From positions 1,260 through 65,259 of the IMG/VR virus record IMGVR_UViG_3300046542_000312: 64,000 nt of DNA. One strand, 5' to 3'. Numbering within the stretch: the stretch's first letter is position 1; each line of letters begins with the position of its first letter. The position numbers and the translations under genes were made by a program. Below are positions 4,092-32,763 of the stretch, piece by piece. This stretch comes from a virus. Its lineage: Duplodnaviria; Caudoviricetes. Below the pieces are notes generated by a model. That model was not told where the DNA came from. It saw only the letters and a program-made list of their open reading frames with translations, and did not search any database.

Positions 4092-4106
4092 TTAAGCCAA
4101 CGTTAA
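4092..4106 (-). promoter_or_regulatory. CtrA box (TTAA-N7-TTAAC)
   Basis: TTAAgccaacgTTAA, perfect, 36 bp upstream of the LexA-like gene. Confidence 0.7.
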
Positions 4107-9288: not shown

Positions 9289-9401
9289 TTCCATCCCCTT
9301 GCATCGAGTCTTGCACGCAGTCTGTCGTAATGCTCCTGCATCGGCTCCTGTAGCTGGAGCCACGCGAGGAACCACAGGAATCCGTTTGTGAACTTCCTCA
9401 C
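9285..9401 (-). CDS. 38-aa peptide (VRKFTNGFLWFLAWLQLQEPM...)
   Basis: GTGA and ATGA overlaps at both ends indicate translational coupling. Confidence 0.55.
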   Translation of the reverse strand: MRKFTNGFLWFLAWLQLQEPMQEHYDRLRARLDARGWK

Positions 9402-10139: not shown

Positions 10140-10154
10140 TTAACGATGGGTTAA
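10140..10154 (-). promoter_or_regulatory. CtrA box over the -10 region of the tad1 operon promoter
   Basis: TTAAcccatcgTTAAC (minus), perfect; TTGACT -35 upstream. Confidence 0.7.
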
Positions 10155-12155: not shown

Positions 12156-12235
12156 GATCGAATCCTTTCTACGATTCCCTGTTGGCAGGTTAACGGTAGG
12201 GTAACGCAAGGACTCGATCAAGTAGCCGGCAGGAT

Positions 12236-14239: not shown

Positions 14240-14570
14240 GCGCGGAATTTTTGGGGCGATGTTTGCGTTTTCGACGCCGGGGGTGTTTTTGGGCGGAATC
14301 GGAGGTTGGGTGTGGGAAATCGTATATATAGAAATGAATCCGGCGAAGGCCCAACCGGGGGGATGGGGGTGGGTAGGGGGAGCCCCACCCCCTCGTGCGC
14401 GCGACGCCTGCATGTGTGCCCGTGCGGACGCGCTTCCATACTCGTCGATCGGCATCCATCCGCGCGAAGGACTCGGCCTCGAATCCTTGCCCAATATGTT
14501 AACAAATAGTGCATTCTGATATGACGACCTTCTCCTTGAAGGTTACGATACCAACAATATCAACAACTTA
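14240..14570. other. Non-coding candidate packaging/terminus region
   Basis: T-tracts, G-run cluster at 14357-14380 with complementary C-run, IHF consensus at 14558-14570, next to terS. Confidence 0.4.
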
Positions 14571-15524
14571 GCTGTCGAGTTTGAGACTTCTGGAAATACG
14601 TGCCAGCATTTCGTCGTCAGAGAGTTCCTGGTAGTCGTCGTCCTTGTCGAGTGCCTTCGTGTCCCACAGCTTCACGTGCTTCATGGAGCCGAGAGCCTTG
14701 GCGGCGGCAACGCGGTCTGAATCCTTCTGGCCATCGCGCATCACGTCAACGAGCGCATCGATGACTTCACGTCTCACCAGGTCGGCATCATAGTATATCT
14801 GATGCCTCACAGCCGCCTTCAACGCTGCAATCCTTGCAGCCACGTGCGGCGTCTTCTCCAGTCTCGACGCCGCTGGCCCCGATGTCGTCCTCTCCATGTT
14901 CGAGCAGTCATAGCTGGCTTCGTAGGCCTCGATCTGCCGCTTCCCCTCAGAGCGCAACTGGCAGAACTTCTCCTGCTGTGCCGTCAGGCGCTTCGTCTTG
15001 CCATCGCTGGTCTTGTATGTGGCCGTCTTCGCCCGCGCCCTGCTGAGGGTATCGCTGTCCGGGTTCAGGTCTTCGTCCAGCTCTTCCGCGTATTCGGCCA
15101 GCTCTTCGTCCGTCATCGGCTCCTCTTCGACGGGGTCGTCCTTCTGCCCGGCGTGAGATTTAGTCTGCTTCGGCGGCTCCACGGACGCGATGCGCACAGG
15201 CACCGATGCCACCATCTCCACCACGTCGTCGGGAATGTCCTCCACCTCTGAAGCCCTTGTATCCTCGGCAGTTGGCGCATCCTCGGGCTTGCCGGCATCC
15301 TTCTCCTCGATCGGGTCGGCGGCGTGCTGCAGCACGGGCTCGGGTTCGATGGCGGCACTGTGGACTGGCGGGATCGGCTTGGCTCCTTTCCTGCTGTCGT
15401 TGAATGCCTTCTCGTATGCGGGCGTGGTCTCCCTCTCTGGTGACGGGGTGTTCTCTCCCATCTCCTTGAGCCTCTCCTTATTCGCTTGGGTGTTGGCTAG
15501 TAGTCTCTGCCTAAGATCGGACAT
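14568..15524 (-). CDS. terS: Terminase small subunit with long acidic N-terminal extension
   Basis: LTAQQEKFC..AYEASY..AASRL..PHVAARI..DRVAAAKALG; start MSDLRQ with GAGGAG. Confidence 0.85.
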   Translation of the reverse strand: MSDLRQRLLANTQANKERLKEMGENTPSPERETTPAYEKAFNDSRKGAKPIPPVHSAAIEPEPVLQHAADPIEEKDAGKPEDAPTAEDTRASEVEDIPDDVVEMVASVPVRIASVEPPKQTKSHAGQKDDPVEEEPMTDEELAEYAEELDEDLNPDSDTLSRARAKTATYKTSDGKTKRLTAQQEKFCQLRSEGKRQIEAYEASYDCSNMERTTSGPAASRLEKTPHVAARIAALKAAVRHQIYYDADLVRREVIDALVDVMRDGQKDSDRVAAAKALGSMKHVKLWDTKALDKDDDYQELSDDEMLARISRSLKLDS

Positions 15525-15525
15525 C

Positions 15526-15557
15526 TGTCGCTCCTCCTCGCTCTGCTCGTCAGTGCG
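15526..15557 (-). repeat. CGC-N3-TCCTCG-N3/7-CTCGTCA-S-TGCG element, copy 1
   Basis: Other copies at 17283-17314, 21003-21033 and 24429-24459. Confidence 0.85.
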
Positions 15558-15837
15558 GGCTACGCCGTTGTGCCCGCATGCAGTTCCATGTCTGACCTTG
15601 CACGGACGATGCCGATCCTGGAATACCTGCGGTATCTGGGCGTGTGTGACCTGCTCGTTTCCGGGGCAGGATTTGCGGCTCATGCATTCCACTTGCAGCC
15701 GCGTCGGCGGGCTGTCGGAGGCTTGCAGGCCCACTCCGAAATCTTTTTCAAATTATTTTCGACCCCGAATCACCAGCACTATCGAGTCCTTGTCAATAGG
15801 TTTGGCGGTCACTCTGAATAATTCTTTGCAAACCCTC

Positions 15838-19975: not shown

Positions 19976-20935
19976 ATGGGTCGCACATCCAATCGCATCA
20001 TATCCGAGTTCTCGCGCAAGCAGGGCGAACGCGTCAAGGCCATCGGCAAGCAGCCTGAGAACGGCGGCCTCGGTGGCAACCACTCCGTCACCACCTACTT
20101 CCTGTCCCGCGTCCTCTACCGCGTCGCCATGGCGGGCGGAGACAGCTACGCTCTGAAGGGCGGCATGCTCCACTACATGCGCGACGGCCTCGGCGGCTGC
20201 CGCCCCACATCCGACATCGACCTGCACGCCCACGACGAGGAGCTGGCCGGCGAGATCGACTACACGATCCGGGAGATGCTGACGGCCACAGTCTACGACG
20301 ACAACGGAGAGGTCGACGACGGCATCTGGATCGACAGCGTCATCCCGGAAGGACTCGCGCACTCGGGAGGAGAAGGCCGTCGGTTCGTCATCAAGGGCGG
20401 CGTCGGCGAGACCGAGGTCTCCGTCAAGATCGACGTGGGATTCGGGGGCGTGAAGCCAAAGGACATGGCCTACAAGGCCGTGCCACTGATCGCGAAGAAC
20501 GTGCCGACCGCCGAGATGCCGTGCTTCCCCGACTGGTACGTGGTGTCCGAAAAGCTACACGCCATCGAGCAGCATGGTGCCGAGAACACCCGCGTCCGCG
20601 ACTACTGGGATCTCCGCAAGTTCGCCCGCATGATCGAGGAAGGCACGCTCGACAGACAGAAGGTCATCGAGGCCATCGTCTTCACATACGGGGATCGCGA
20701 CACCGAGATCGACGCGGATCCCTTCGGACTGCGCGCTGAGTTCGCAGACGAGTTCCGCGAGAAGACGTGGAGGAACTGGCACAACTCCCGCAACTGGAAG
20801 CAGGAGGGCACCCTCGAGCAGTGCGTCCTCGACATCCAGGAGATCTACCGCGAACTCCTGTGGGAGGCACGTCTCCTCATCGAGGACAGGCTTGCCGACG
20901 CTCAGGCCTACGGGTATCCCGTCTACCGTCCCTGA
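19976..20935 (+). CDS. AbiEii/DUF1814-family nucleotidyltransferase toxin
   Basis: LKGG, RPTSDID, KIDVGFG, SEKLHA, RVRDYWDL. Confidence 0.9.
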   Translation: MGRTSNRIISEFSRKQGERVKAIGKQPENGGLGGNHSVTTYFLSRVLYRVAMAGGDSYALKGGMLHYMRDGLGGCRPTSDIDLHAHDEELAGEIDYTIREMLTATVYDDNGEVDDGIWIDSVIPEGLAHSGGEGRRFVIKGGVGETEVSVKIDVGFGGVKPKDMAYKAVPLIAKNVPTAEMPCFPDWYVVSEKLHAIEQHGAENTRVRDYWDLRKFARMIEEGTLDRQKVIEAIVFTYGDRDTEIDADPFGLRAEFADEFREKTWRNWHNSRNWKQEGTLEQCVLDIQEIYRELLWEARLLIEDRLADAQAYGYPVYRP

Positions 20936-20955
20936 TTACTATCATCATTCCCCAT

Positions 20956-20988
20956 AGCCCCCTTGGTTCATTCCTTGGGGGCTTTTTG
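20956..20988 (+). terminator. Rho-independent terminator
   Basis: AGCCCCC...GGGGGCT-TTTT. Confidence 0.8.
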
Positions 20989-21002
20989 CGTTCCGGAGAT
21001 TG

Positions 21003-21033
21003 TCGCTCCTCCTCGTGCCTCGTCAGTGCGAAG
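21003..21033 (-). repeat. TCCTCG/CTCGTCA element, copy 3
   Basis: 31 bp identical to 24429-24459. Confidence 0.9.
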
Positions 21034-21127
21034 GACTCATAACTCCGGCCACGTAGCCAATCTTTGCCTTGTTCCAGGATTCGCCGGCACACATGATGGG
21101 TGTACGCCAAGCTAACAAGGATTCATC

Positions 21128-22180
21128 ATGATCGACACGCTCTCCCAGTCCAGCATCAAGCCTTCGACCGTCGCCGAGATCATCGCCGCCGTCGTCGATC
21201 GCAACATGCGTCTCGCAGACGTCGGTTCCGGCAAGGAGCCGCTCACGCCCTACATCGTCGGCGACCCCGGCATCGCCAAGACTTCCGTCGTCCGGAAGGT
21301 GGGCCACACCATGGGGCTGGAAGTCCGCACGCTCATCACGGCGCAGTACGATCCGGCCGTTCTCGGCGGCTTCCCGATCGTGTCCGCGGACAAGGGTACG
21401 GTCAGGCGCGCACGTGCGGAGGAACTGCCATGGGAAGGACGCGGGATCCTGTTCCTCGACGAGCTGCCGCAGGCATCTCTGGCCGTCCAGAACATCGTGG
21501 CGCAGCTCATCCAGGAGCATCGCATCGGCCCGACGGTCATCCCTCCGACGTGGTCCATCATCGCCGCAGGCAACAAGCCGTCCAACCGTGCAGGCACCAC
21601 CACGATCCCCTCCCATCTCCGGGGCAGGCTCATGTTCCTCTACATGGAGCCGGACATCGACGAGTGGCTGGAATACGCCGTGGAGGCGGATGTCGCCGCG
21701 GAGATCGTCGGCTACCTCAGGTACCGCAAGGACTTCTTCCACAAGTTCGAGACCACCGCCGACGGTCAGCGCAACCCGCGTAGCTGGGAGAAGTCCAGCG
21801 AGATCATCGCTCTCAGGCTGTCTCCGCTGGCCGAGCAGGCGGCTCTGACGGGTGTTCTTGGTGTTGCTGGCGGCGGAGATCTTGCGGGCTTCCTCCGGCT
21901 CTACAGGGAGCTTCCGTCGATCGAGGAGATCCTGTCGAACCCGCGCGGTGCCAGACTGCCCGTCCAGCCTCAGGTGGCATACGCCTGCGCGGCCGCTCTC
22001 GCCCGTGCCGTTGACGCAGGCAACATCGACCGGGCGATCACGTATCTGGACCGCATCGGCAAGAACGACATCAAGACCTTCGCCCTGAACGACGCGCTCC
22101 TGCGCAATCCGGGAACCGTGCAGAACAAGGCGATGGCCGAGTGGATCATGAACTACCGCAAGCAGAGGAGCGTCGCATGA
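21128..22180 (+). CDS. MoxR-like AAA+ ATPase
   Basis: GDPGIAKT, LFLDE, AAGN, PRSWE. Confidence 0.92.
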   Translation: MIDTLSQSSIKPSTVAEIIAAVVDRNMRLADVGSGKEPLTPYIVGDPGIAKTSVVRKVGHTMGLEVRTLITAQYDPAVLGGFPIVSADKGTVRRARAEELPWEGRGILFLDELPQASLAVQNIVAQLIQEHRIGPTVIPPTWSIIAAGNKPSNRAGTTTIPSHLRGRLMFLYMEPDIDEWLEYAVEADVAAEIVGYLRYRKDFFHKFETTADGQRNPRSWEKSSEIIALRLSPLAEQAALTGVLGVAGGGDLAGFLRLYRELPSIEEILSNPRGARLPVQPQVAYACAAALARAVDAGNIDRAITYLDRIGKNDIKTFALNDALLRNPGTVQNKAMAEWIMNYRKQRSVA

Positions 22181-22299
22181 GGATCCGTTTCGTATTCGCC
22201 GCAGGGGTGATGCTCCTGCTCGCCGCCTGCCAGAGCAACAACCAGTACAGCGATCCGATCGTCATCGAGGCGATCAGGCTACAGAACGAGGGGAAATGA
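22177..22299 (+). CDS. 40-aa lipoprotein MRIRFVFAAGVMLLLAACQSNN...
   Basis: Lipobox LAAC; ATGA overlaps at both ends; GAGGAG RBS. Confidence 0.7.
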   Translation: MRIRFVFAAGVMLLLAACQSNNQYSDPIVIEAIRLQNEGK

Positions 22300-23306
22300 A
22301 CATGTACGACCACGAAGACAAGAAGACCATCGACATCGAAGACTACATCGTAGCGGCCGGCACCAGCGACACGCCCGTCGCCGACATGCCTGTGGCATTC
22401 GAGGAAGCCGCCGAAGTGAAGGACGACGATGGCAACCTGCACAGGACGTCGCTTCTGATCTCGGTCAAGTTCTCGGCATGGAAGGGCGAGCGCGTCGACC
22501 GTCCGGCCTCCGACGAGATCGTCCGGCAGAGCAAGGCCGAATCCAAGTCGGCCCGCGTCGTCAAGTCGCTGGTGTCGAAGGAATACCTCACCGACATCAA
22601 TGCGTCGATGAAGTCGCTCAAGACCATCTGGCACCTCCAGACGCTCCCCTGGATGGATTCGGGCCAGCGCATCATTCCGGCGACGAAGTTCCCCAAGTTC
22701 ATGGACGCGGCCCTGCCGATCATCAACCAGTTCGACCAGGCCGCCGACAAGTTCGCATCGGAGTATCCGGATCTCCTGTCGAAAGCGGAGGCCCGTCTCG
22801 GATCCCTATACCGCGCCGAGGACTATCCGGACGTGGCCAGCGTGCGCGCTCTCTTCGCCGTGACGATCCGTCCGTCTCCCGTGCCGCACTATGACGACTG
22901 GCGCGTCGACCTTCCGAACGAACAGATCGAGGCCATCAAGCTTCTGACGAGGAAGTCCACGGCCGAGGCATGCGCCCAGGCGACACGCGTGCTGGCACTG
23001 CGTCTCTACAAGCTCGTCCACCAGTTCCACGACAGGATCGACGCGTTCGACAAGGGCGAGACCGAACGCCTGCGCTCCCAGCTCACGGATGCGATCGGCG
23101 ATCTCGCAGGCAGGGCCGACGACTACAACTTCGAGGGCAACCATGAGCTGGCCGGGATCATCTCGGACATGAAGAACCAGCTTGCCGTGCCGACCAAGGG
23201 ACTCGTCCGCAACGAGGAGGCCCGCGCCGTGGTGAAGAGCAACGCCGAGAACTTGATGGGCAGGCTGCGTGGTCTCGGTCTCTCGAAGGATTCGTCCGAT
23301 GAGTGA
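22296..23306 (+). CDS. DUF3150-like protein
   Basis: TLPW..GQRIIP and F..EYP..A..RLG.LY..EDYP pattern; usual AAA/VWA partner. Confidence 0.7.
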   Translation: MNMYDHEDKKTIDIEDYIVAAGTSDTPVADMPVAFEEAAEVKDDDGNLHRTSLLISVKFSAWKGERVDRPASDEIVRQSKAESKSARVVKSLVSKEYLTDINASMKSLKTIWHLQTLPWMDSGQRIIPATKFPKFMDAALPIINQFDQAADKFASEYPDLLSKAEARLGSLYRAEDYPDVASVRALFAVTIRPSPVPHYDDWRVDLPNEQIEAIKLLTRKSTAEACAQATRVLALRLYKLVHQFHDRIDAFDKGETERLRSQLTDAIGDLAGRADDYNFEGNHELAGIISDMKNQLAVPTKGLVRNEEARAVVKSNAENLMGRLRGLGLSKDSSDE

Positions 23307-24426
23307 TGCGGCGGCACGTGGCGTCGAGGCGGCGATGACGGGGCTGATGAACACACAGCCCTTCTTCGCCTCGGTGCTTCACACGATGGAGGTCTCCGTC
23401 GAGGACAGCCTGCCGACGTCCACTATCATCGTCGACGGGGAGCGGGTGTTCATTCATCCGCGCTTCGTTCTCGAGCACACCGAGAAGGAGCTTCAGGCCG
23501 TGCTGGCGAAAGAGGCTATGCACGTGGTCTACAAGCACCACCTGAGGCGTGGCGACAGGGATGCGCGCATCTGGAACCTCGCCGCCTCATACGTGGCCAT
23601 TCCGCTCGTCCTGGAGTGTGGTCTCTATCCGCCGCGTGGATACCTTCACGACAAGGATTTCGAGAACCTGTCCGTCGAGGAGGTCTACGAAATCCTGAAG
23701 GAAGACCTCGAAGACGACGAGGAGGAGATCGAACAGCAATTCGGCCGCGCCGCCGAGACCGGAGGCATCGTCATCGACCCGGAGGACGCGTCGAAGGCTT
23801 CCGGCCAGGGGCAGATGCAACTGGAGGCCGACGTCCGCTTCGCCATGGCCCAGGCATCCCAGCAGGGCAAGCTTCCGGGATCTCTGAAGAGAAAGCTCGA
23901 TGCGGGGCTGGAGAGGGCCGTACAGTGGCAGGAGCTGCTTTTGCATGAACTCACCCGTCACGGAGCCTTGGACTGGTCCTACGCCCGTCCCAGCCTGTTT
24001 GCGCCACCAGATGTGATCCTTCCCACCACGCATGGCATGCAGGCAGGCGTGGTCGTCATCGCCGGGGACACTTCGGGGTCGCTTTCGGTCGAGCAGCTCA
24101 TGGACCAGATCGCCGAGACGAACGCCATCATCGAACAGGCTCGGCCGTCGCTCGTCTGGCTCGTCCAGTGCGACGAACACGTACAGCATGCCGAAGTCCT
24201 CGATGGGCCGATCCCCGGACTGCAGGTGGCCGGCGGCGGCGGCACGCGGTTCCAGCCCGTGTTCGACTGGATCGAGGAGATGGAGGTCAATCCCGACGTC
24301 CTCATCTACATGACCGACTGCGAAGGCCCGGCTCCGTTCGAACCGGACTATCCGGTGATCTGGCTGTCGTGTTCCCGGAAGAGCGGGCCGTTCGGGACTA
24401 CCATCCATACCAACAGTCCCAACTGA
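23299..24426 (+). CDS. DUF2201-type metallopeptidase-like plus VWA domain protein
   Basis: DTSGS MIDAS, GGGGT, TD; N-terminal KEAMH..H.LRR and WNLA. Confidence 0.88.
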   Translation: MSDAAARGVEAAMTGLMNTQPFFASVLHTMEVSVEDSLPTSTIIVDGERVFIHPRFVLEHTEKELQAVLAKEAMHVVYKHHLRRGDRDARIWNLAASYVAIPLVLECGLYPPRGYLHDKDFENLSVEEVYEILKEDLEDDEEEIEQQFGRAAETGGIVIDPEDASKASGQGQMQLEADVRFAMAQASQQGKLPGSLKRKLDAGLERAVQWQELLLHELTRHGALDWSYARPSLFAPPDVILPTTHGMQAGVVVIAGDTSGSLSVEQLMDQIAETNAIIEQARPSLVWLVQCDEHVQHAEVLDGPIPGLQVAGGGGTRFQPVFDWIEEMEVNPDVLIYMTDCEGPAPFEPDYPVIWLSCSRKSGPFGTTIHTNSPN

Positions 24427-24428
24427 AC

Positions 24429-24459
24429 TCGCTCCTCCTCGTGCCTCGTCAGTGCGAAG
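24429..24459 (-). repeat. TCCTCG/CTCGTCA element, copy 4
   Basis: Identical to 21003-21033. Confidence 0.9.
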
Positions 24460-24518
24460 AATCGTTAACCTCGGATGCGTCGGCCGCTTGACGGTTGCAT
24501 GGCGCACCGTTAACGTCC

Positions 24519-24641
24519 AATCAGCACTGGGGAGCATGGCCCCGGCAGCGGTCTCGCGGAAGCTGAGACATCCTTTCTTCCTTGGTTGGCGCTTTAGAAG
24601 AAAGCACCCCGTTCTCGAAAGAGGCGGGGTGTTCTGCTTTT
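24519..24641 (+). ncRNA. Candidate sRNA or attenuated leader
   Basis: TTGACG-N17-TAACGT promoter (24488-24516), hairpin, CU-rich stretch, and terminator-like GCACCCCG..CGGGGTGT. Confidence 0.4.
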
Positions 24642-24859
24642 ATGGCTCCGCTATCATCAAGGCACGTGTCGCAAATGCCGAATTCGTGGCCACTGAATGG
24701 GTTCTGACCGTCCATCCGGTGTTCGACACGTCAATAGTTCTTCGACGCACTGTATGGCCTGTTTCTGACGGTTATCCGTATTTCCCTTCATGTTCGACGA
24801 CTCCAGTCAGGATGCACGCTCGTCTGTTTGCCGTCCGTTTCTATTAAGATTCAAGGACA

Positions 24860-25008
24860 TACGTGATTATCTACTTCCACTACCCTTCTGTCCTCCGCCT
24901 CCCTGCTCGCTCTGAGTCAGATTCCGAATCCGAGTCTCCAACAGGAGGCAGGTGGGGGGGGCAGGTGGGCAGGTGGGCAGGTGGGTAGTGGAAGTAGATA
25001 ATCACGTA
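24860..25008. repeat. 26-bp perfect inverted repeat enclosing 4 tandem GANTC sites and GCAGGTGG x4; putative replication origin
   Basis: TACGTGATTATCTACTTCCACTACCC (24860-24885) and its complement (24983-25008). Confidence 0.75.
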
Positions 25009-25171
25009 CATAACTGTAACTGTTATATAATCCTCGACACGAGTCCTATGTTGGAAGCACTGTTGAAGGATTCGATTGTAGCCGGCGCTTGCGGCTGGCA
25101 GAAACGTGTCTCACTATCTGGATGTCACCGCCGCGTTTGCCGACGCGAGTGACGCTTAGAAAGGACACATC

Positions 25172-26380
25172 ATGAAAGCCAATCCCCTGCATCACACATG
25201 CACGTGGTTCGACAGCGAACTCCGTGACCGCGCACTTTGCTTCGACTGGGACGTTGACCCGGACACCGTCGAGCAGCTTGTGCCATTTCCTCCTTACAGG
25301 ACGACGAAGGGCCGCAACACGATGGCCGCCGTCATCTCGGATGCGATTATCTCCTCGAAGATGCACCCAGGAATCCGCACGTCGTACTCCCGCAACAACA
25401 ACTGGAATGCCGAAAAGTCCCGCTACTACGGGAAGGATCTGGCGCTGACCACGGTTCCCGAGATCGTCGATCGTCTCGTGGACAGCGGAGTCCTTGTCGA
25501 GCACGACAAGCGCCCTCCGACGCCGTTCGCCACCGGAATCCAGTCTTCATTCCTCCCGTCCGAACACCTGAAGGACATCGAGCTTCAGGCCGTACGGCGT
25601 CGACGCAACGAGCTGATCCGCCTCAAGGACAAGGAAGGCGGATACATCGACTACAAGGACACGGAGCGCACGGAGCGTGACCGCAGGTTCGTGACGAAGA
25701 TCAATCGAATCCTTGAGGAAGCCGACATCGAGCTGAACTCTCCGAATGGTATCCAGGAAGGAGACCTGATCCGGTTCTCCGAGCATTCCGTCATCGCGGC
25801 TGACAAGTCCCTCTACCGGGTCTATAACCGCGGCGTATGGACGATGGGCGGAAGGTTCTACGGAGGCTTCTGGCAGGGTGTCAGCAAGAAGGACAGGGCG
25901 TTCTTCTGCATCAACGGCCAGTCTGTCGCCGAGGAGGACTACAGTCAGATCCATCCGTCCATGCTGTATGCCATGGCAGGAGCCACGAAGGACGGAGACG
26001 CCTACGATATCCCCGGCTGGGATCGCGACCTCTGTAAGAAGGCGTTCAACATCCTCATCAACGCCAACGGCTGGACTCAGTGCCACAATGCGCTGATGTA
26101 CAAGGGCATGGACTACGACGAGGCGGCCGCCTTCATCGAGGCGGTCAAGGCCAAGCACCCGAAGATCCGGGAATACTTTCACAGCGGACTCGGCATCGAA
26201 CTCCAGAACTTCGACTCGGCGATGTGCCGGATCGTGCTTGACGAGATGAGCATCAAGCGCAAGATCGTGTGCCTCCCCATCCACGATTCCTTCATCGTCC
26301 CTGAGGACTGCCGTGACGAACTGGTCGAAGTGATGCAGATGGCCTGGAGCAAGGTGATGCCGACGCTGGCAAATCACTGA
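25172..26380 (+). CDS. Family-A/T7-RNAP-fold polymerase (TV-Pol-like), putative replication initiator or primase
   Basis: GGRFY, motif A EEDYSQIHP, motif B RDLCKK, motif C PIHDSF; no exonuclease domain. Confidence 0.75.
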   Translation: MKANPLHHTCTWFDSELRDRALCFDWDVDPDTVEQLVPFPPYRTTKGRNTMAAVISDAIISSKMHPGIRTSYSRNNNWNAEKSRYYGKDLALTTVPEIVDRLVDSGVLVEHDKRPPTPFATGIQSSFLPSEHLKDIELQAVRRRRNELIRLKDKEGGYIDYKDTERTERDRRFVTKINRILEEADIELNSPNGIQEGDLIRFSEHSVIAADKSLYRVYNRGVWTMGGRFYGGFWQGVSKKDRAFFCINGQSVAEEDYSQIHPSMLYAMAGATKDGDAYDIPGWDRDLCKKAFNILINANGWTQCHNALMYKGMDYDEAAAFIEAVKAKHPKIREYFHSGLGIELQNFDSAMCRIVLDEMSIKRKIVCLPIHDSFIVPEDCRDELVEVMQMAWSKVMPTLANH

Positions 26381-26383
26381 AAC

Positions 26384-26426
26384 TGAAACGGCCTCGGGGG
26401 AAAGGACTCACCCCGAGGCCGTTAAA
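26384..26426. terminator. Bidirectional terminator hairpin
   Basis: AACGGCCTCGGGG / CCCCGAGGCCGTT. Confidence 0.75.
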
Positions 26427-26517
26427 TTAGGTTCTCCAACCTCTTCATCCCTACCGGACGGGCCGTTTCACCGTGAGGCTATTGGCAGGGACGAAGGTTT
26501 GCCGTCCTTCATCCATA
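26427..26517 (-). ncRNA. Candidate antisense sRNA
   Basis: TTGACA-N17-TATCAA promoter (26551-26523); long stem AACCUUCGUCCCUGCC/GGUAGGGAUGAA(GA)GGUU. Confidence 0.5.
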
Positions 26518-26642
26518 ATGAATTGATACAGGTGTGACATGTATTTGTCAACAGCCGACGGCTCGGCCATCTGGGTTGATAAACCTTATAAAACAATAAC
26601 TTATATCAATGTCAACTTACTATTTGGCTCGTGATGCAAGAA

Positions 26643-27200
26643 TCACCCGTGCATCTCGACCTCGACAGTCACGCACTGGAGATGCGCAAGCCCACGCTCG
26701 GCCAGTCTCCTGCGCTTCGCCTCCTTGCCTTCCTGCTCGAGCATGAGCATCTTCTCGCGGTTGTTGGCGATGTACTCGTGATCCTTCTTCAGGAGCTTCA
26801 GTCCGTGCTGGACGCGGTACTCGATGCGGATGTCGCGGTTGCGCTCGCGCTCGGCCTCGCAGACGTCCCATTCGCGGAGCATGTCCTGGAGAACGCCGGC
26901 CAGTCTCTTCGCCTCATCCGGGTCTGCGGTGATGATCGTCTCGAAGAACTTCTTCACCGGGATCTCCTCGACCTCGGCGCAGTGGCAGAGCGTCTGGAAC
27001 TCCTCGGACTTCAGCCATCGCCGAACCTTCGCCTGTCCGAAGTTGTCCTCCGGCTTGTGGTAGGCCTCAATGGCCGCCTCGCTTGCCTCGATGTACAGTT
27101 CCCCCAGAACCGCCCGGAATAGTCTCGCATCGTACGATGCATCTCGGTCTGTCTCGATCGATGGATTTTGCGTAGTGCTTCTCTGTGATTGCGCGGTCAT
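26643..27200 (-). CDS. Hypothetical coiled-coil protein (start uncertain)
   Basis: Good codon usage; overlaps the rusA 3' end. Confidence 0.65.
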   Translation of the reverse strand: MTAQSQRSTTQNPSIETDRDASYDARLFRAVLGELYIEASEAAIEAYHKPEDNFGQAKVRRWLKSEEFQTLCHCAEVEEIPVKKFFETIITADPDEAKRLAGVLQDMLREWDVCEAERERNRDIRIEYRVQHGLKLLKKDHEYIANNREKMLMLEQEGKEAKRRRLAERGLAHLQCVTVEVEMHG

Positions 27201-27516
27201 TGACGTAGATCCTCCCCTGCAAGGCGTCTTCCACCAGACTTCCGTCCAGATCGGGCCTTCTCGATGCGTAGTAGATGAACAGATACAGCCGGAGCTCGCC
27301 CTCCAGCATCTCACCCAGCACAGGGCACTGGCGCTCGAACGTCTTCAGATAGTCCAGGGCTTTCTGCGACTTGATCGACCTGACCCGGCCGTTCGCCGCC
27401 GGCACGATCCGCCGGCTGTTTGCCTTCGAGCATGGCTCGCCGAGGATCTCGAACTGAACCCAGCGGGTTCCGTCCTCCTCGAATCCTTCCTCCAGCTCAG
27501 CCTGTTTAATCGCCAT
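27067..27516 (-). CDS. rusA: RusA-family Holliday junction resolvase
   Basis: GEPCSKAN, RRPDLD..VEDALQG.IYVNDR. Confidence 0.85.
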   Translation of the reverse strand: MAIKQAELEEGFEEDGTRWVQFEILGEPCSKANSRRIVPAANGRVRSIKSQKALDYLKTFERQCPVLGEMLEGELRLYLFIYYASRRPDLDGSLVEDALQGRIYVNDRAITEKHYAKSIDRDRPRCIVRCETIPGGSGGTVHRGKRGGH

Positions 27517-27659
27517 TACCCTGCTGTTAACCTTCAAGCGTCAACAGGATTGCTATTCCAATCCTTGCCAACAGTTGCCGTGAGTCCTTCGGAAGCCTTG
27601 ATTCACACATGCTCCACACCGATGATTGTATCCGCCGACAAGGGAAGGAACCAAACCCC

Positions 27660-28586
27660 ATGCATTTCACCAACAAACTGGGCCTCCCGGATGCCATCGT
27701 GAACGCCGTCACCAACGACGAGTATTCGCGCGGCAACTCCGACGCGAGTGTCACCCAGCTCATCGGCAGCCCGCGCCAGAGCGTGCTGTTCCGCAGACAC
27801 CACGAGCAGATCGAGGTCGACGTCTCCGAGCGCTTCTGGGCGCTCTGGGGAAAGACGATCCATACACTCCTGGAGGACAAGGCCGCCGGCGACGAGACGG
27901 TCGCCACCGAGCAGAGACTGTTCACGAGGATCGACGGATGGAACATCTCGGGCCAGTTCGACTGGCTGAAGTGGGACGGGCCGGAACTGTCGCTCAAGGA
28001 TTACAAGCTCTGCACCGCATACGCCGCCATGTCGGAGAAGTCGGAATGGGAGAACCAGCTCAACATGCTGGCCTGGCTCATCGAGACTGTGGCCAACGAA
28101 GCCGATGAGGATGGCGTTCTTCCCGATGAACCTTTCTGCGTGGAAGACATCGGCATCGTCGCCCTGATACGTGACTGGTCGAGGGCCGCCGCCGACAAGG
28201 ATCCCGACTATCCCCAGTCTCCGATCCTCCAGCTACCGCAGAGACTATGGCCATACGAGGAGCGCGAGGCCTACGTTCGGGAGCGTGTCCGGCTTCACCG
28301 AGAAGCGAGGACGCACAGGATGCGCGGCGACGAGCTGGCACCCTGCACCGACGAGGAACGATGGATCAAGCCTCAGGACTGGGCCGCGATGAAGCCCGGA
28401 GCCAAGCGCGCCTCCCGCGTCTTCCAGACCGAGGAGGACGCCGTCGAATACGCAAAGACCAAGCCGGAGCTGGAGGTCGTCCGCCGGAAATCAGAACCAA
28501 CCAAGTGCAAGCTCTACTGCTCGGTGTCGTCGTTCTGCGACCAGTACCAGCGGGAGCTACTATCATCAGCGGAGGTGTCCGAATGA
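27660..28586 (+). CDS. PD-(D/E)XK exonuclease (Cas4/RecB-like)
   Basis: G..IH, E.R, SGQFD, DYK, QLN, C-terminal Cys cluster. Confidence 0.8.
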   Translation: MHFTNKLGLPDAIVNAVTNDEYSRGNSDASVTQLIGSPRQSVLFRRHHEQIEVDVSERFWALWGKTIHTLLEDKAAGDETVATEQRLFTRIDGWNISGQFDWLKWDGPELSLKDYKLCTAYAAMSEKSEWENQLNMLAWLIETVANEADEDGVLPDEPFCVEDIGIVALIRDWSRAAADKDPDYPQSPILQLPQRLWPYEEREAYVRERVRLHREARTHRMRGDELAPCTDEERWIKPQDWAAMKPGAKRASRVFQTEEDAVEYAKTKPELEVVRRKSEPTKCKLYCSVSSFCDQYQRELLSSAEVSE

Positions 28587-28876
28587 ACAAGACCTTCAGA
28601 CTGCGTTCCGAGGCCTACATGGCCCATGTGAGGACTTTTCCGTGTCTGGTATGCGGAGACGTGTCGGAAGCCCACCATCTGCTCCGCACGCCCGATGGAA
28701 GGGGCATGGGCATGAAGTCCGGCGACCAGTGGTGCGTGCCACTCTGCCACGAGCACCACATGGAGCTTCACAATCTCGGAGCCGAGCCGCTCTATTTTAC
28801 CCTCAAGGGAGTCGAGGATCCCGTCACATGGGCGCGATGCTGCTACGCCGCATGGGAGATGCTCCATGGCGAGTGA
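28583..28876 (+). CDS. DUF968/HNH-like zinc-binding protein
   Basis: PCLVCG..AHH..GMGMKSGD..VPLCHEHH..LH. Confidence 0.8.
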   Translation: MNKTFRLRSEAYMAHVRTFPCLVCGDVSEAHHLLRTPDGRGMGMKSGDQWCVPLCHEHHMELHNLGAEPLYFTLKGVEDPVTWARCCYAAWEMLHGE

Positions 28877-29465
28877 CATCCGCAGGATCGCCATCGTCAC
28901 CGAGGCGACACTCACGCAGATGAAGCAGAACACGCTCGGCATCGCCGCCTGCGTTCGCATCCCCGGACACCGCGTCCCGCTCGATCTTCTGGCCGCCCAG
29001 ACGGGCACCCGGTTCCAGACATCGTGGTCGTCGATCGACGAGCCGGAGAAGGCGGTCTCCATCGAAGCCGCGATCCAGGGGTTCAAGCGGAACTCCGCGG
29101 GCGTGGCCGTGACCCTGAAGCTCCATCCCGACGACACCCCGCCGGAACTATTCACGACGGCCGGCTCCTCCAGATGGCTGATCGCCTGGATACAGCTCGG
29201 AGACGCCGACGAGCCAGTCGAGGGAGAGATCGCATCGGCAGGACGCCGTGCAGAATCATCTGCCAGAGGACTCGTCCGGCATCCCGACTTCCAGTCCTGG
29301 TGCTCAAGGACTTACGGCGTTAGCGCAGACGAGGAAGGAGCCACGCAGGCCGTGCTTGAGTCCTGCGGTGTTGAAGGACTCGACGAGATATCCATGAACC
29401 ACCGCGCCACCCGCCTTCTCGAAGAGGTCCGGGAAGAATTCGTTAAGGACTGGAATCGATCATGA
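28866..29465 (+). CDS. Hypothetical protein
   Basis: Coupled in operon. Confidence 0.75.
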   Translation: MASDIRRIAIVTEATLTQMKQNTLGIAACVRIPGHRVPLDLLAAQTGTRFQTSWSSIDEPEKAVSIEAAIQGFKRNSAGVAVTLKLHPDDTPPELFTTAGSSRWLIAWIQLGDADEPVEGEIASAGRRAESSARGLVRHPDFQSWCSRTYGVSADEEGATQAVLESCGVEGLDEISMNHRATRLLEEVREEFVKDWNRS

Positions 29466-29523
29466 GTCCTACAAAACCCGACCGAATCCTTCAAAAGCCT
29501 ATTGCGCCGATCGAGTCCTTGGG

Positions 29524-29539
29524 TTAACGATGGATTAAC
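29524..29539 (+). promoter_or_regulatory. CtrA box upstream of the excisionase-like gene
   Basis: gTTAAcgatggaTTAAC, perfect in both orientations. Confidence 0.75.
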
Positions 29540-29568
29540 AAAGATTTGACTTGAAGGATTCAACGACA

Positions 29569-29778
29569 ATGATCGTATTCGGAACCGAGTATTGGAGCGT
29601 CACCGACATCGCCAGGCAGTGCGGCGACGTGCACCGAGACACCGTCTACCACTGGATGAAGACGAGGGTCTTTCCTCCGGCCCGCCTGAAACAGGGCAAG
29701 TCCCGATACTGGGATCCGAAGGAGATCATCGAATTCTACAGGATCGAATTCGTCGAGCCATTGCAGAGGGCAGCATGA
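29569..29778 (+). CDS. AlpA/Xis-like HTH (putative excisionase)
   Basis: DIARQCGDVHRDTVYHWMK..FPP..W. Confidence 0.75.
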   Translation: MIVFGTEYWSVTDIARQCGDVHRDTVYHWMKTRVFPPARLKQGKSRYWDPKEIIEFYRIEFVEPLQRAA

Positions 29779-30005
29779 CCACCACCGTCGTCTACGTTCT
29801 TCTCATCCTCACCTGCACCCAGCCGGACGCCGACACCAAGACCTGCACGCAGAAGCGCCAGGTCTTCCCCGTCGAAGCCCAGTGCCAGGACATGATGCAG
29901 AGGATCGGAAGTGCGTTGACGGCGGATGCGATGAAGCCCGGCACGGTGATGATGATGGAATGCCGCCAGGGCGCGGCGACAACAACAGAGGGAGCATCCA
30001 AGTGA
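29775..30005 (+). CDS. Small Cys-containing exported or membrane protein
   Basis: Hydrophobic N-terminus, 4 Cys. Confidence 0.65.
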   Translation: MTTTVVYVLLILTCTQPDADTKTCTQKRQVFPVEAQCQDMMQRIGSALTADAMKPGTVMMMECRQGAATTTEGASK

Positions 30006-30391
30006 AGGACTCGAACGACTATCTCGGCCGCATGGCCACCAGACTTCAGAACCGCCTCATCGAGATCGCCGGCGACAACCGCGGCGAGTTCCGCGACTTC
30101 GAGCCGGGCACCGCGAAGATCCGCTGCGATCTGGCGCTCACCATGAACGAGGAGCACGACGGATATCTTCTCGACGCCTTCGTCGAGAGGTTCCGCGAGG
30201 AAGTATCCGACCGCGCTTTCTCCGGCCCAGTCCGCTGGTGGCGGCTTCCGACCGTCGAGATCGGTAAACTCCCGGAAATGGACGATGAGTTCAGCCTGTT
30301 CGAATCCGAGAACATCGAGGATCACGACTTCCAGATGTGGTTCCCCTGGTCTCCGCGCACCCTCGTCGTGCGCTTCACCGTAGAGGCCTGA
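30002..30391 (+). CDS. Hypothetical protein
   Basis: GTGA overlap. Confidence 0.7.
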   Translation: MKDSNDYLGRMATRLQNRLIEIAGDNRGEFRDFEPGTAKIRCDLALTMNEEHDGYLLDAFVERFREEVSDRAFSGPVRWWRLPTVEIGKLPEMDDEFSLFESENIEDHDFQMWFPWSPRTLVVRFTVEA

Positions 30392-30392
30392 C

Positions 30393-30932
30393 ATGTTCAA
30401 CATCGGCCCGTGGAAACCAGAGGAAGTCCAGAGAGCGAGAGAGCTCTACATCGCTGGCATGACCCTCGACAATATCACCAAGCATCTTCCGGGCCGATCC
30501 GCCAACGCCGTCGGCTCCAAGCTGTTCAAGCTCGGCATGACCGGACTGGCCGCCAAGGGTAAGGCCGCCGTGCAGAAAAGCGCAGTCGCCGAAGCCCCTC
30601 CCGAGAACTTCGTGGAATGGACGCGCAGGCAGGAAGCCGCACTCATCGAGCTGTGGTACCAGAACGCGCCGCTCTCCCGGATCGTCGAGAAGACGAAGCA
30701 CACCGAGGAGCAGATCGGAGACTACGTGAAGCGCATGGGCGTCCACGACAGGAACTCCCCGACGTTCAAGGCGGACTCCCGCGGCAAGCGTCTCCGGGTG
30801 TGCATGACCTGCCAGCAGGTCTTCATGTCGTCCGGGGCTGGTAACCGTCTCTGCGGATGCGTCGACACCGGAGGGTATCACGACACCACGGGAGCTGGCC
30901 GCAAGACAGGCGGAATGGCACATTCCAAGTGA
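30393..30932 (+). CDS. GcrA-like protein: two GcrA-type HTH repeats plus Zn finger
   Basis: W..EE....ELY..G.....I...L.GRS.NAV.SK..KLG, second WT..Q...L.ELW repeat, CxxC..NRLC. Confidence 0.65.
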   Translation: MFNIGPWKPEEVQRARELYIAGMTLDNITKHLPGRSANAVGSKLFKLGMTGLAAKGKAAVQKSAVAEAPPENFVEWTRRQEAALIELWYQNAPLSRIVEKTKHTEEQIGDYVKRMGVHDRNSPTFKADSRGKRLRVCMTCQQVFMSSGAGNRLCGCVDTGGYHDTTGAGRKTGGMAHSK

Positions 30933-30953
30933 GGACAAAACCCGCCGGCGATT

Positions 30954-30985
30954 TGACAGTCTCGGCGGGTTAATACATGGTTAAC
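30954..30985 (+). promoter_or_regulatory. Integrase promoter with CtrA box over the -10
   Basis: TTGACA..CATGGT; TTAAtacatggTTAAC at 30970-30985. Confidence 0.75.
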
Positions 30986-31041
30986 GAGTAGACAGAATTC
31001 TACTCTCTGATTCACGCCAACCGGATCCAAGGAATACATAC

Positions 31042-32217
31042 ATGGACATCAACATCGAGATCAAGGGCGACCGCCCGCACCACGACCCCATTCCGGGCGT
31101 GAAGATCGTCTGGTCAAAGAAGAGCCAGAAGTTCTACTACTACGACCAGGCCACCAACAAGCCGATCACCGGATCCCCGGACACGTGGGAGTTCCGCGCG
31201 GCCATGAAGACGGCGGCGTCGACCACGGTCAAGGAGATGATCGACCAGTACCGCCTGAGCACCGACTACAGGAAGCTGAAGTCGTCGAGCAAGATCACAA
31301 AGGACAGGGAGCTCATGCTCATCGAGGAGCGGTTCGGCGAGCGTCCGATCGACAGTGTCACGCGCTCCGACATCAACCAGGTCTACGACATCGAGCTGGG
31401 AGACCGTCCCGGTAGAATGGTCTCCTTCCTTGCCGCCGCCAAGGCTGTCTGGAACCACGCCATCGTCAACGAGAAGACTATCATCAACCCGTGCAACACC
31501 TTCAAGCGTCCGAACCTCGGAAGCCTCAAGGCATGGCCGGAACATCTCATCCAGCCCGCGCTCGACAGCCTGCCCGAACATATGCGCGACATGTGCGTGC
31601 TGGCTCTATACACCGGACAGCGCTACTCGGATCTACGCGCCATGCTGTGGACTGACTTCGACCCCAAGGCGCGAACGATCAAGGTCGTACAGGAGAAGCT
31701 GTTCAAGGAAGGCGAGGACGAGGGAGACAAGGTTCTTGAGATTCCATGCCACGACAAGCTCTACTCTTACCTGATGAAGATGCCCCGGAAAGGCCCGTAT
31801 ATCTGCATGACAAGCACATGCAAGCAGTGGCCCCAGAACGGCCAGTTCGCTGGCAACCTGAACCGACTGTTCTCGAAGACGGCGATGAAGGGCTACTCGA
31901 TCCACGGACTGCGCAAGACCGCCGCCAAGCGTCTCGCCGACGTCGGCTGCTCGGCCCACCAGATCATGTCGATCACCGGCCACTCGACCCTCGCCGAGGT
32001 TCAGCGCTACACCCGCGGCTTCAGCCAGAAGAAGGCGTCGCAGGAAGCCATGTCGATGCTCCAGGGCAAGCAGCACCAGGACATCGTCGAGGCGCTCCCG
32101 AAGAACCTGTTCGAGCGCAAGGCGGCCCTTCTGGCACTTCTAGCGGAAGTTGAATCCGCAGAGGCCGAGCAGGGTGAATACGAAGTCCCGCTCGAAACTG
32201 TCAGAGAGCTGATTTGA
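31042..32217 (+). CDS. int: Tyrosine integrase
   Basis: TGQR.SD, HGLRK, GH, and catalytic Y (QRYT). Confidence 0.95.
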   Translation: MDINIEIKGDRPHHDPIPGVKIVWSKKSQKFYYYDQATNKPITGSPDTWEFRAAMKTAASTTVKEMIDQYRLSTDYRKLKSSSKITKDRELMLIEERFGERPIDSVTRSDINQVYDIELGDRPGRMVSFLAAAKAVWNHAIVNEKTIINPCNTFKRPNLGSLKAWPEHLIQPALDSLPEHMRDMCVLALYTGQRYSDLRAMLWTDFDPKARTIKVVQEKLFKEGEDEGDKVLEIPCHDKLYSYLMKMPRKGPYICMTSTCKQWPQNGQFAGNLNRLFSKTAMKGYSIHGLRKTAAKRLADVGCSAHQIMSITGHSTLAEVQRYTRGFSQKKASQEAMSMLQGKQHQDIVEALPKNLFERKAALLALLAEVESAEAEQGEYEVPLETVRELI

Positions 32218-32219
32218 TT

Positions 32220-32436
32220 GGGTTTTCCGGGTTTTCCAAAAATGTTGCCGAGGTTCGGAAAAACTGGAAAAAATCGGAAAACTAAGTGGACAACCCCTTG
32301 ATTTCATTGGATCACTAATGTTCTTCATGAACGTAACTTCTGTAATGAAATCAACCACTTAGAATTTTGGGTTTGTCGGGGTTTGTCGGAGCATGTAGGC
32401 TGACAGGGAAAACTAGGAAAACTTCTACTAAAACTT
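32220..32436. other. attP-like site
   Basis: AT-rich; GGAAAAC/GTTTTCC arm repeats on both sides; inverted TTGATTTCATT/AATGAAATCAA with IHF consensus (32291-32303, 32349-32361) flanking a core at 32309-32343. Confidence 0.65.
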
Positions 32437-32499
32437 GTCTCCCGGAGATTGACTTCGGGAGACCCAGACATAACCTTCCGCCGTGTCAGGAGACGTGGA

Positions 32500-32763
32500 A
32501 TGAGCATCGAAGCACAGCACATCTGGTCGGCGATCGACGACGTTGCGGAACGGAATCACGTGTCAGTCAGAGAGCTGGCGACCCGTGCCGGGCTTCACTA
32601 CACGGCCCTCTACAAGCGCAAGAAAGGTGACGAGGACAGGTGGCCGACGAGCCATACTCTCGCCGCCACCCTGTCCGCCGCAGGTGTCTCGTTCGCCGAG
32701 TTCGGGGCCATCGTGGACACTATTTCGCGGCAGCCTTCTTCTCCCGCTTCATCTCAGAGATAG
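32500..32763 (+). CDS. XRE/CI-like HTH protein lacking the S24 domain
   Basis: IWSAID..A......LA.RAGL.....K.K....RWP.....LSA.G.S..EF, the alphaproteobacterial repressor N-domain pattern. Confidence 0.75.
   Translation: MSIEAQHIWSAIDDVAERNHVSVRELATRAGLHYTALYKRKKGDEDRWPTSHTLAATLSAAGVSFAEFGAIVDTISRQPSSPASSQR

Follow-up and report, generated by a model that had tools for sequence, protein, structure and literature searches.

A TV-Pol-like polymerase beside a palindrome with phased GANTC sites in a temperate phage: a candidate site of replication initiation

Introduction

The TV-Pols are defined by four structural hallmarks, are found in viruses and in integrase-bearing mobile elements, and were predicted in 2008 to be the primase-polymerases of mobile elements (Iyer, Abhiman and Aravind, PMC2579912; this and the other papers cited here by PMC number are used in excerpt). 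CCPol, the one TV-Pol studied biochemically, is a primase-polymerase with a preference for starting at a neighbouring putative origin that bears iterons (PMC7581432). Here we describe a TV-Pol-like polymerase, P0001, and a 149-bp imperfect palindrome upstream of its gene in a 64,000-nt stretch of phage DNA (the window; bases 1260–65259 of the 65,259-bp IMG/VR virus record IMGVR_UViG_3300046542_000312). We propose, with a probability of roughly 0.4, that P0001 is a replication-initiating primase/polymerase and that the palindrome is its site, serving as the phage origin or as a control region. A first-pass annotation, made from the sequence alone, had drawn attention to the same pairing.

P0001 is like the TV-Pols in its minimal core of the family-A type, which has a thumb, an arginine on a beta-hairpin, a pair of palm aspartates and an RxxxK motif in the fingers but no nuclease, and also in its extra N-terminal domain, its occurrence in viruses or integrase-bearing elements and its alphaproteobacterial members (PMC2579912). 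It differs in that a D5-like helicase is fused or adjacent in the TV-Pol family and none is found here, and the likeness seen is one of fold and motifs. The named members of the family include CCPol, Sputnik V13 and the Ma-LMM01 protein.

CCPol-MP and Cch2 of SCCmec also combine an A-family core lacking proofreading with a position on a mobile element beside an intergenic region that contains direct and inverted repeats (PMC7581432, PMC10061031). In those excerpts CCPol needs its partner MP and a helicase, whereas neither was found here, where the polymerase gene is monocistronic, a six-frame search for SSB, the protein that binds DNA in its single-stranded form, was empty and a winged helix is fused to the polymerase instead. 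CCPol also keeps the ribonucleotide-excluding residues E174 and F225, while P0001 has, by motif register, His261 and Asn293 (PMC7581432). Unlike in the CCPol region, the repeats at the P0001 locus form a palindrome containing GANTC.

In phage lambda, the origin is located within or beside the gene for the initiator, O. Origins of this kind, including the Rep/ori system of SaPI (PMC7581432, in the part available), resemble the locus examined here in having iteron-like repeats around a centre and an AT-rich tract, adjoining the only replication gene. The SaPI and lambda initiators are helicases or helicase loaders, not polymerases, and no methylation-site array is known in either system.

GANTC is the target of CcrM. 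In Caulobacter, GcrA-responsive sites are found near -20 and from +2 to +30 (PMC4647560), and phage phiCbK encodes a GcrA homologue (PMC7987155). The CcrM/GcrA promoters and the Caulobacter origin share with this locus a clustering of GANTC in regulatory DNA and a phage GcrA-type domain, but the excerpts of these two papers contain no description of four GANTC sites spaced exactly 6 bp apart within a palindrome. To judge from the predicted -10 elements, the array also departs from the -20 and +2 to +30 rule, and there is no DnaA or CtrA box at the locus. Single-subunit RNA polymerases (T7-like enzymes and N4 RNAP II, 6dt7) share the fold of P0001, but no promoter-specificity loop or N-terminal RNA polymerase domain was identified in it. 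What is new at the locus, compared with these systems, is the fused winged helix, the lack of a helicase and of an oligonucleotide-binding (OB) fold partner, the His and Asn at the sugar-selectivity sites and the palindrome with phased GANTC.

The polymerase

The polymerase gene and its immediate features are as follows.

25172–26380, + strand: gene for the TV-Pol-like polymerase P0001, 402 aa, beginning 163 bp past the right arm of the palindrome
P0001 residues ~30–144: winged helix; residues ~145–402: polymerase core
26387–26423, + strand: hairpin with a 13-bp stem and an 11-nt loop just past the polymerase stop codon, read from the sequence and not called by the terminator scan

An AlphaFold model of P0001, built with 35 homologues, had a pLDDT of 90.1 and a pTM of 0.87, and the top Foldseek matches were Bst and Taq polymerases and apicoplast Pol I (E 3e-4 to 1e-3). 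When residues ~145–402 were compared using VIA-align, the Z scores were 12.2 for apPOL, 12.0 for the yeast mitochondrial RNA polymerase and 11.5 for the T7 RNA polymerase. Polymerase and RNA polymerase matches at Z 10–12 stood clearly over the next tier, and N4 RNAP II (6dt7, a 404-aa chain) scored 7.3. Residues 30–144 matched winged-helix domains at Z ~5, which is in the noise range of the tool and indicates the fold class only. The exonuclease domain is absent from the model, so that the first-pass description of a 402-aa family-A-fold protein without exonuclease about 160 bp downstream of the repeat was borne out.

The residues expected of a TV-Pol were found in the alignment of 35 sequences. 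Of the two palm aspartates, which were placed by motif, D256 is invariant and lies at the end of a strand (250–256), while D372 is at least 90% conserved and lies in a hairpin (368–377); H371 and D372 together are nearly invariant. The beta-hairpin arginines R216 and R228 (strands 214–218 and 226–231) are invariant, as are R285 and K289 of the fingers RxxxK motif in helix 285–297. On the model, P0001 is a TV-Pol-like minimal family-A polymerase with all four structural hallmarks, an assignment that is made because the family-A core without an exonuclease and the residues R216/R228, D256, R285/K289 and D372 match those hallmarks; the first-pass identification is upheld. Motif A of P0001 reads DYSQI, which is also the Pol I reading. 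By motif register, His261 is found at the Pol I steric-gate site (D+5; E710) and Asn293 at the Phe762 site (K+4), and both are invariant. This suggests, from the alignment, a different sugar selectivity.

The sequence itself is remote from characterised polymerases. P0001 matched no Pfam family, DNA_pol_A included, at E≤1, and PDB sequence and profile searches reached no polymerase. A match was found to phrog_4756 (E 9e-50), which is labelled unknown function. At the 90% clustering level it had 1119 relatives and at the 50% level 6381 (E≤0.001), the closest being 49% identical. The subfamily is thus very large (6381 representatives) yet has no Pfam model, and extends over Rhizobiales islands, proviruses and lytic vibriophages. 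A non-exhaustive literature search found no paper on it.

All open reading frames (ORFs) of at least 170 aa were scanned by Pfam and/or PHROGs, and the portal by Atlas. These ORFs included neither a helicase nor a primase, an SSB or a second polymerase, and six-frame searches of the window for DnaB_C and for SSB were empty with their controls positive. The window is nearly the whole of the record, the first 127 bases of which recur at its end as a terminal repeat, and the 1,259 bases beyond the window hold part of an SU10-type portal gene and small ORFs. The genome is essentially complete and a conventional replication module outside the window, which would have undone the first-pass proposal, was not found. 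P0001 is the only recognisable replication-type enzyme of this essentially complete phage genome, as had been claimed.

An alternative is that P0001 is not a replicase but a stand-alone accessory enzyme, such as a small RNA polymerase or primase, a repair or tolerance polymerase or part of a conflict system, in which case the palindrome would be an insulated promoter. The gene forms a unit of its own between hairpins, ahead of a convergent gene (26643–27314, - strand), near accessory genes for AbiEii and MoxR-VWA proteins and in a region where the G+C content drops to 0.57–0.58 (24–28 kb). Distant homologues (24–28% identity) are found in 141 large lytic phage records, including ICP1 (Vibrio phage ICP1_2006_B, 52714–54201), where they are annotated as hypothetical. 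The fold fits single-subunit RNA polymerases equally well (the Z scores of 12.0 and 11.5 against 12.2), and the ribonucleotide-excluding E710 and F762 are replaced by the invariant His261 and Asn293 (by motif register, with PMC7581432 as the source for the role of these sites in the part seen). However, no PADLOC model matches P0001, no other replication protein was found in the phage, and the homologues in integrative islands occupy the position expected of a replication gene. We consider an accessory role rather unlikely.

The palindrome

The region between the upstream operon and the polymerase gene (24427–25171) contains the following features.

24427–24474, + strand: copy of a 46-nt repeat, 85% identical to 21003–21048, immediately 3' of the stop codon of the DUF2201/VWA gene
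24551–24640, + strand: two terminator-like hairpins with T-rich tails, closing the upstream MoxR-VWA operon
24860–25008: imperfect palindrome of 149 bp with perfect 26-bp outer arms (24860–24885 and 24983–25008)
24914–24936: four GANTC sites at 6-bp spacing (24914, 24920, 24926 and 24932), 9 bp off the palindrome centre
24943–24987, + strand: four G-rich 8-mers (GGCAGGTG type; GCAGGTGG-like) with spacings of 13, 8 and 8
24894–24866, - strand: mirror promoter-like site, a consensus match only
24974–25002, + strand: promoter-like hexamers TGGGCA-17-GATAAT in the right arm, directed toward the polymerase gene, a consensus match only
24998–25035, + strand: AT-rich tract with 8 G+C in 30 bp (24998–25027), among the most AT-rich of the window
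25026–25031, + strand: TATAAT inside the AT-rich tract

The palindrome is located in the largest real intergenic gap of the window (745 bp). The 26-bp inverted repeat, the four GANTC sites and the four 8-mers that the first-pass annotation listed are all present as described, the repeat being perfect and unique in the window. Arm pairing runs on to 37 nt at 89% complementarity (24860–24896 with 24972–25008), and the 24-nt core of the arms was found at just these two places in the window when up to 3 mismatches were allowed, against 0.00 expected. Folded as single-stranded DNA, the 171 nt from 24850 to 25020 gave -48.4 kcal/mol (z = -8.33), a value matched by none of 200 shuffles. Degenerate C-rich mirror copies of the 8-mers are found in the left inner half (24886–24913), and the four 8-mers constitute one of the window's only two G-quadruplex-type motifs. 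The sequence is AT-rich in the outer arms and in both flanks, the promoter-like hexamers point outward from both arms, and the arms open and close with TA.

The palindrome is a real DNA element and is unique in the material searched. Exact arms were found in no viral contig and in no metagenome contig. A search of 401 genomes of the order with up to 3 mismatches gave one match, the same number as a control pattern, and the genomes of the three closest homologues had no match to 24427–25171. An identity as a miniature inverted-repeat transposable element (MITE), or as one of several arm copies, was rejected on this basis. An invertible switch was set aside, the 97 bp between the arms being short and no invertase having been found; sequencing-run contigs, which lose rare variants, had no strand-changing joint at the repeat. 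A telomere-resolution site was also set aside, as no protelomerase was found and the arms are not adjacent, and so was a phage attachment site, as the integrase gene is 6 kb off with its own repeat at 32298–32354.

The GANTC array

GANTC is depleted across the window (242 observed against 428 expected) and is denser in non-coding than in coding DNA (6.5 against 3.45 per kb). The phased pattern GANTCNGANTCNGANTCNGANTC was found once in the window, against 0.01 expected. When the 242 sites were placed at random, four fell within 19 bp in 186 of 20000 trials, and eight fell within 275 bp in 399 of 20000; the array exceeds chance. An exact copy of the array was found in no metagenome contig. The viral contigs gave at least 120 matches to GANTCNGANTCNGANTCNGANTC, mostly in giant-virus bins, and this looks like a non-specific hexamer-repeat signal.

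The further sites at 24799, 24848, 25041 and 25069 that had been counted with the array are all present, but those at 25041 and 25069 are in the context YGANTCCT (AGGANTCR on the opposite strand), which is over-represented in the window with 68 copies against 24.6 expected (for example at 12159, 21118–21125, 43591, 49236, 53585 and 56502). Many of these copies belong to ribosome-binding sites with the pattern AAGGANTC-N2-5-ATG, and the Shine-Dalgarno sequences of many genes are therefore overlapped by a CcrM site. As YGANTCCT mostly reflects ribosome-binding sites, the count of eight sites near the palindrome is less special. A second GANTC cluster of equal size, with 8 sites in 300 bp from 29269 (region 29253–29561), covers the end of the gene at 28866–29465 and the intergenic region ahead of the genes for a 75-aa protein, a 169-aa protein, the GcrA-domain protein and the integrase.

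In one + strand frame the array reads Glu-Ser-Asp-Ser-Glu-Ser-Glu-Ser, and the palindrome could be an element without a dedicated function, either a sequence relic, such as a decayed piece of a former long-form polymerase gene that encoded a Pro-rich, Glu/Asp-Ser linker and was duplicated in inverted orientation, or a selfish palindromic insertion, such as a MITE-like element ending in TA. In that case the phasing would simply follow from Glu/Asp-Ser codons, and the Pro-rich, acidic and Ser-rich linkers that follow the core in long-form homologues do carry GANTC as GAN-TCN. A blastx search with 24427–24860 also gave 31.2 bits to the C-terminal core of the homologue P0142, a score reached in none of 60 shuffles. 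The possibility that 24452–24847 is the decayed 3' part of a second polymerase gene was nevertheless rejected, because the family hidden Markov model scored -3.9 (E 210), like random six-frame segments, and hhalign gave a probability of 0.72%. An insert is opposed by the absence of a second arm copy from the window, the viral and metagenome contigs and, above control, the 401 genomes. That the 26-bp arms are perfect while the inner parts have decayed suggests maintenance of the arms. On balance, an origin as relic or insert is improbable.

Homologue loci

Loci containing homologues of P0001 were fetched from viral contigs (50) and from genomes (80, the best 80 of 532), and 122 of the 130 had at least 400 bp upstream of the polymerase gene. 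The inverted repeat with a GANTC array that had been expected upstream of homologues was not seen, as none of the 122 had three or more GANTC sites within 30 bp in this position or a comparable repeat. Perfect arms of at least 15 nt were found at two of them, neither resembling the repeat in the window; one is a 19-nt hairpin ~600–700 bp away and the other is, by eye, tRNA-type. The first-pass annotation therefore stands in what it observed, in the type of enzyme and in its being the sole replication enzyme, while the pairing with an upstream element does not recur in homologues.

A different upstream feature is common to 11 of the 23 closest homologues (L053, L054, L056, L062, L064, L065, L068, L069, L070, L073 and L075). 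This is a leader of ~150 nt, 60–200 nt before the start, made up of a CTTGAC box, a hairpin between an A-run and a T-run (with the inner GGGCTGGAACCC conserved), then GTAAAGNCC and a GTG start. The hairpin is 60–105 nt ahead of the start, 5 of its 12 pairs have compensatory changes, and the leader has no GANTC array.

GANTC clusters were also found downstream. There are 18 in the 1.45 Mb of loci, of which nine are 93–594 bp past the polymerase core, and in the 80 genome loci the interval from +60 to +200 holds 49 GANTC sites against 24.4 expected (p = 8e-6). The closest parallel to the array is found at L058 (7215–7320), where seven non-coding GANTC sites, arranged as two phased groups, come after a C-rich tract, 93–140 bp past the stop codon of a polymerase gene whose product is 45% identical to P0001. 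By eye, the C-rich tract is followed by TCTGAGTCAGA(A/T)TC. A blastn search of 24640–25171 against the 130 loci (E≤5) did not report this array. It did report a 29-nt match of 24647–24675 to L056 975–1002 (E 3e-4), in an unrelated host gene.

L056, a locus in a Rhizobium chromosome, contains the closest homologue. The gene order there is tRNA-Ser, a 635-aa integrase-like ORF (DUF6538, a weak match only), then the polymerase, a 436-aa ORF whose relaxase matches are below threshold, and GmrSD. The region has the look of an integrative mobilisable island of the kind the TV-Pol paper describes, which suits replication of a mobile element. Just four homologues are longer than 704 aa, none with a helicase domain on record, and five provirus or virus records with homologues are also without DnaB.

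Among phage records, tblastn (E≤1e-5) found homologues in Vibrio, Aeromonas, Pseudoalteromonas and Shewanella phages only. The gene is located at 51.8–60.8 kb in ICP1, depending on the isolate, and the coverage peak of early theta replication in ICP1 is reported near 60 kb (PMC7145576, in the part seen). The two are in the same general region in some isolates, and this is a lead only.

Links to the host cell cycle

Features that may connect the phage to the regulators CtrA, GcrA and CcrM are as follows.

30393–30932, + strand: GcrA-type DNA-binding-domain protein, 179 aa (PF07750, E 8.6e-6; score 26.6 bits, just under the cut-off of 26.9)
4092–4106, 10140–10154, 29524–29538 and 30970–30984: four perfect matches to the CtrA box (TTAA-N7-TTAA) where 0.04 would be expected, each of them intergenic

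Residues 7–59 of the GcrA-type protein match Caulobacter GcrA (7ye1_G, E 6e-4, PDB sequence search), and it is a possible reader of methylated GANTC. Two of the CtrA-box motifs are nearly identical (TTAACGATGG[G/A]TTAA); one box is ahead of the integrase gene and another is ahead of the operon with the GcrA-domain gene. A six-frame search for N6/N4 methyltransferases, with positive controls, found none and the lone phage methylase is a C5 enzyme, so that methylation of GANTC would have to be supplied by the host. The Cori-like combination of DnaA and CtrA boxes with GANTC is not present at the polymerase locus, which has the GANTC cluster only; no TTAA-N7-TTAA motif was found in 24427–25171. 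Judged from these motifs, the phage is plausibly wired to CtrA, GcrA and CcrM, with the evidence pointing to promoters.

The palindrome might accordingly control transcription of the polymerase gene, as a promoter or operator whose GANTC array is recognised in a methylation-dependent way by the phage GcrA-domain protein or by host GcrA/CcrM, or else form a leader-RNA hairpin for processing or attenuation. It occupies the stretch between the upstream terminators and the gene, in which a promoter has to lie, and there are hexamers in both arms and the TATAAT at 25026–25031. The phage encodes its own GcrA DNA-binding-domain protein, and the second GANTC cluster (29269) is ahead of the operon containing that gene. 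GANTC is denser in non-coding DNA, and the four CtrA boxes in other intergenic regions indicate wiring to host cell-cycle regulators at promoters. The conserved leader with a small hairpin in 11 of the 23 closest homologues makes leader control a family habit. The two sites at 25041 and 25069 would fall at ~+2 and ~+30 of the start predicted after the TATAAT. The array, however, is 60–95 bp upstream of the predicted -10 elements, unlike the Caulobacter positions of -20 and +2 to +30, and YGAKTCK fits, by eye, just one of the four array sites (positions and motif as given in the excerpt of PMC4647560). An operator would not usually have perfect 26-bp arms separated by 97 bp, and a search of both strands of the whole window with Rfam at gathering thresholds found no known RNA element. 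Transcriptional control is a tentative reading that deserves serious weight, and we judge a transcriptional switch about as likely as an origin because the phage has the GcrA-domain protein and four CtrA boxes.

The proposed initiation site

In the reading of the locus as a site of initiation, P0001, a fusion of a winged helix with a TV-Pol, would prime phage DNA synthesis and would act at the palindrome 163 bp upstream of its own gene. The origin element would comprise the iteron-like 8-mers on both sides, the central GANTC array and the AT-rich flanks. Host CcrM methylation would mark the array, the phage GcrA-domain protein possibly reading the marks, and the host replisome would take over after initiation. 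This reading is favoured because of the composite architecture, the location of the palindrome in the largest intergenic gap beside the only replication enzyme, and the precedent of CCPol. The island layout at L056, the five records without DnaB and, more weakly, the GANTC clusters past the polymerase core in 4 of the 80 genome loci also count in its favour. We infer that P0001 primes, that its winged helix binds the element, that the element works as an origin and that methylation has some role. That priming takes place at the hairpin and that the host cell cycle gates replication, as the first-pass annotation had also envisaged, is conjecture. The fullest version, in which a single polypeptide initiates with RNA or mixed primers, as the replacement of its sugar-selectivity residues by His261 and Asn293 might allow, and without a phage helicase at a cruciform-forming palindrome, with GANTC read via CcrM and the GcrA-domain protein, is unlikely.

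Several observations weigh against a role in initiation. The GC skew follows gene orientation with no turn near 25 kb, and no DnaA box (TTATNCACA, up to 1 mismatch) was found in 24427–25171. No helicase or small OB-fold partner was found, while CCPol needs MP in order to prime (PMC7581432, in excerpt). The outward-pointing promoter-like hexamers in both arms and the self-contained unit between hairpins also fit an accessory gene with its own regulated promoter. The 6-bp phasing of the array may, to judge from its reading frame, be of coding origin. None of the 122 loci has a comparable palindrome upstream and the neighbours of the polymerase gene are not syntenic across the 130 loci. The collections searched hold no relative of the element, and so no test of covariation or conservation is possible. 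The downstream GANTC excess is weak, being driven by four loci (L058, L068, L075 and L079; 93–147 bp past the core), and three of these four clusters fall within a Pro-rich, acidic and Ser-rich linker belonging to a longer protein, with GAN-TCN (Asp/Glu-Ser) codons accounting for 8 of the 12 sites there.

If P0001 does initiate at the palindrome, phage DNA synthesis would have a new, minimal mode of initiation, linked to the CcrM/GcrA/CtrA circuit. A one-polypeptide initiator of this kind would couple replication of the phage to the cell cycle of its host. It would be the first case of a phage replicon built on a TV-Pol and, in the Alphaproteobacteria, of a phage origin gated by methylation. 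If the palindrome is a promoter switch instead, it would still be an unusual array of methylation sites, bindable by a two-domain GcrA-like reader. With a sole replication-type protein and a candidate target 163 bp away, the phage is a clean test case.

Other features of the phage

Further genes identified in the window are listed below.

1–2082, - strand: SU10-type portal, 827 aa, with the gene crossing the window start (Atlas scan)
14568–15734: small terminase
19976–20935: AbiEii-type nucleotidyltransferase (Pfam E 6e-20; PADLOC E 1.5e-33)
27609–28586: Cas4/RecB-type exonuclease
31042–32217, + strand: tyrosine integrase (PF00589, E 2e-14), 4.7 kb from the polymerase gene
Operon upstream of the polymerase locus: MoxR ATPase and DUF2201/VWA protein
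Also encoded in the window: large terminase; SU10 adaptor, lysozyme and a 2119-aa polyvalent protein; tail fibres and major head protein; a C5 methylase, the sole phage methylase found

We consider this to be a temperate podovirus-like phage, because terminases, an SU10-type portal and adaptor, tail fibres, a head protein and a tyrosine integrase are encoded, and its host to be Rhizobium-like. An alphaproteobacterial host fits since the relatives of the polymerase are mostly from Rhizobiales and GANTC is depleted. The cut portal gene gave rise to spurious ORFs (587–1252 and 1180–2103) in lists made from the window only.

A megablast search of 20000–32500 found no match among phage records, and a DNA search with 21000–30000 gave short weak matches only, none over the palindrome, in 401 genomes of the family of L056. 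No relatives of the VWA protein were found in viral contigs, and the closest in the protein collection was 67% identical and encoded on a 2155-bp contig. Short contigs of one sequencing run (X2) are ~97% identical to the flanks of the locus (22819–24173 and 27328–29840); there is no coverage of 24670–25203 and little of the polymerase gene, but at ~3x depth the Logan contigs are uninformative on presence or absence.

The 46-nt direct repeat (21003–21048 and 24429–24474; 85% identity with the first 31 nt identical) brackets the operon of genes for MoxR, a 336-aa protein and the DUF2201-VWA protein, and contigs of a second run (X1), which may be that of the source sample, end at its second copy. 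The AbiEii-type gene had no recognised AbiEi partner among the neighbours scanned. A 238-aa protein (9398–10114) has a C-terminal match to the Acb2/Tad1 hairpin domain (PF24729, E 3.5e-6) and, on the strength of this match, may be an anti-defence sponge joined to an uncharacterised N-terminal part.

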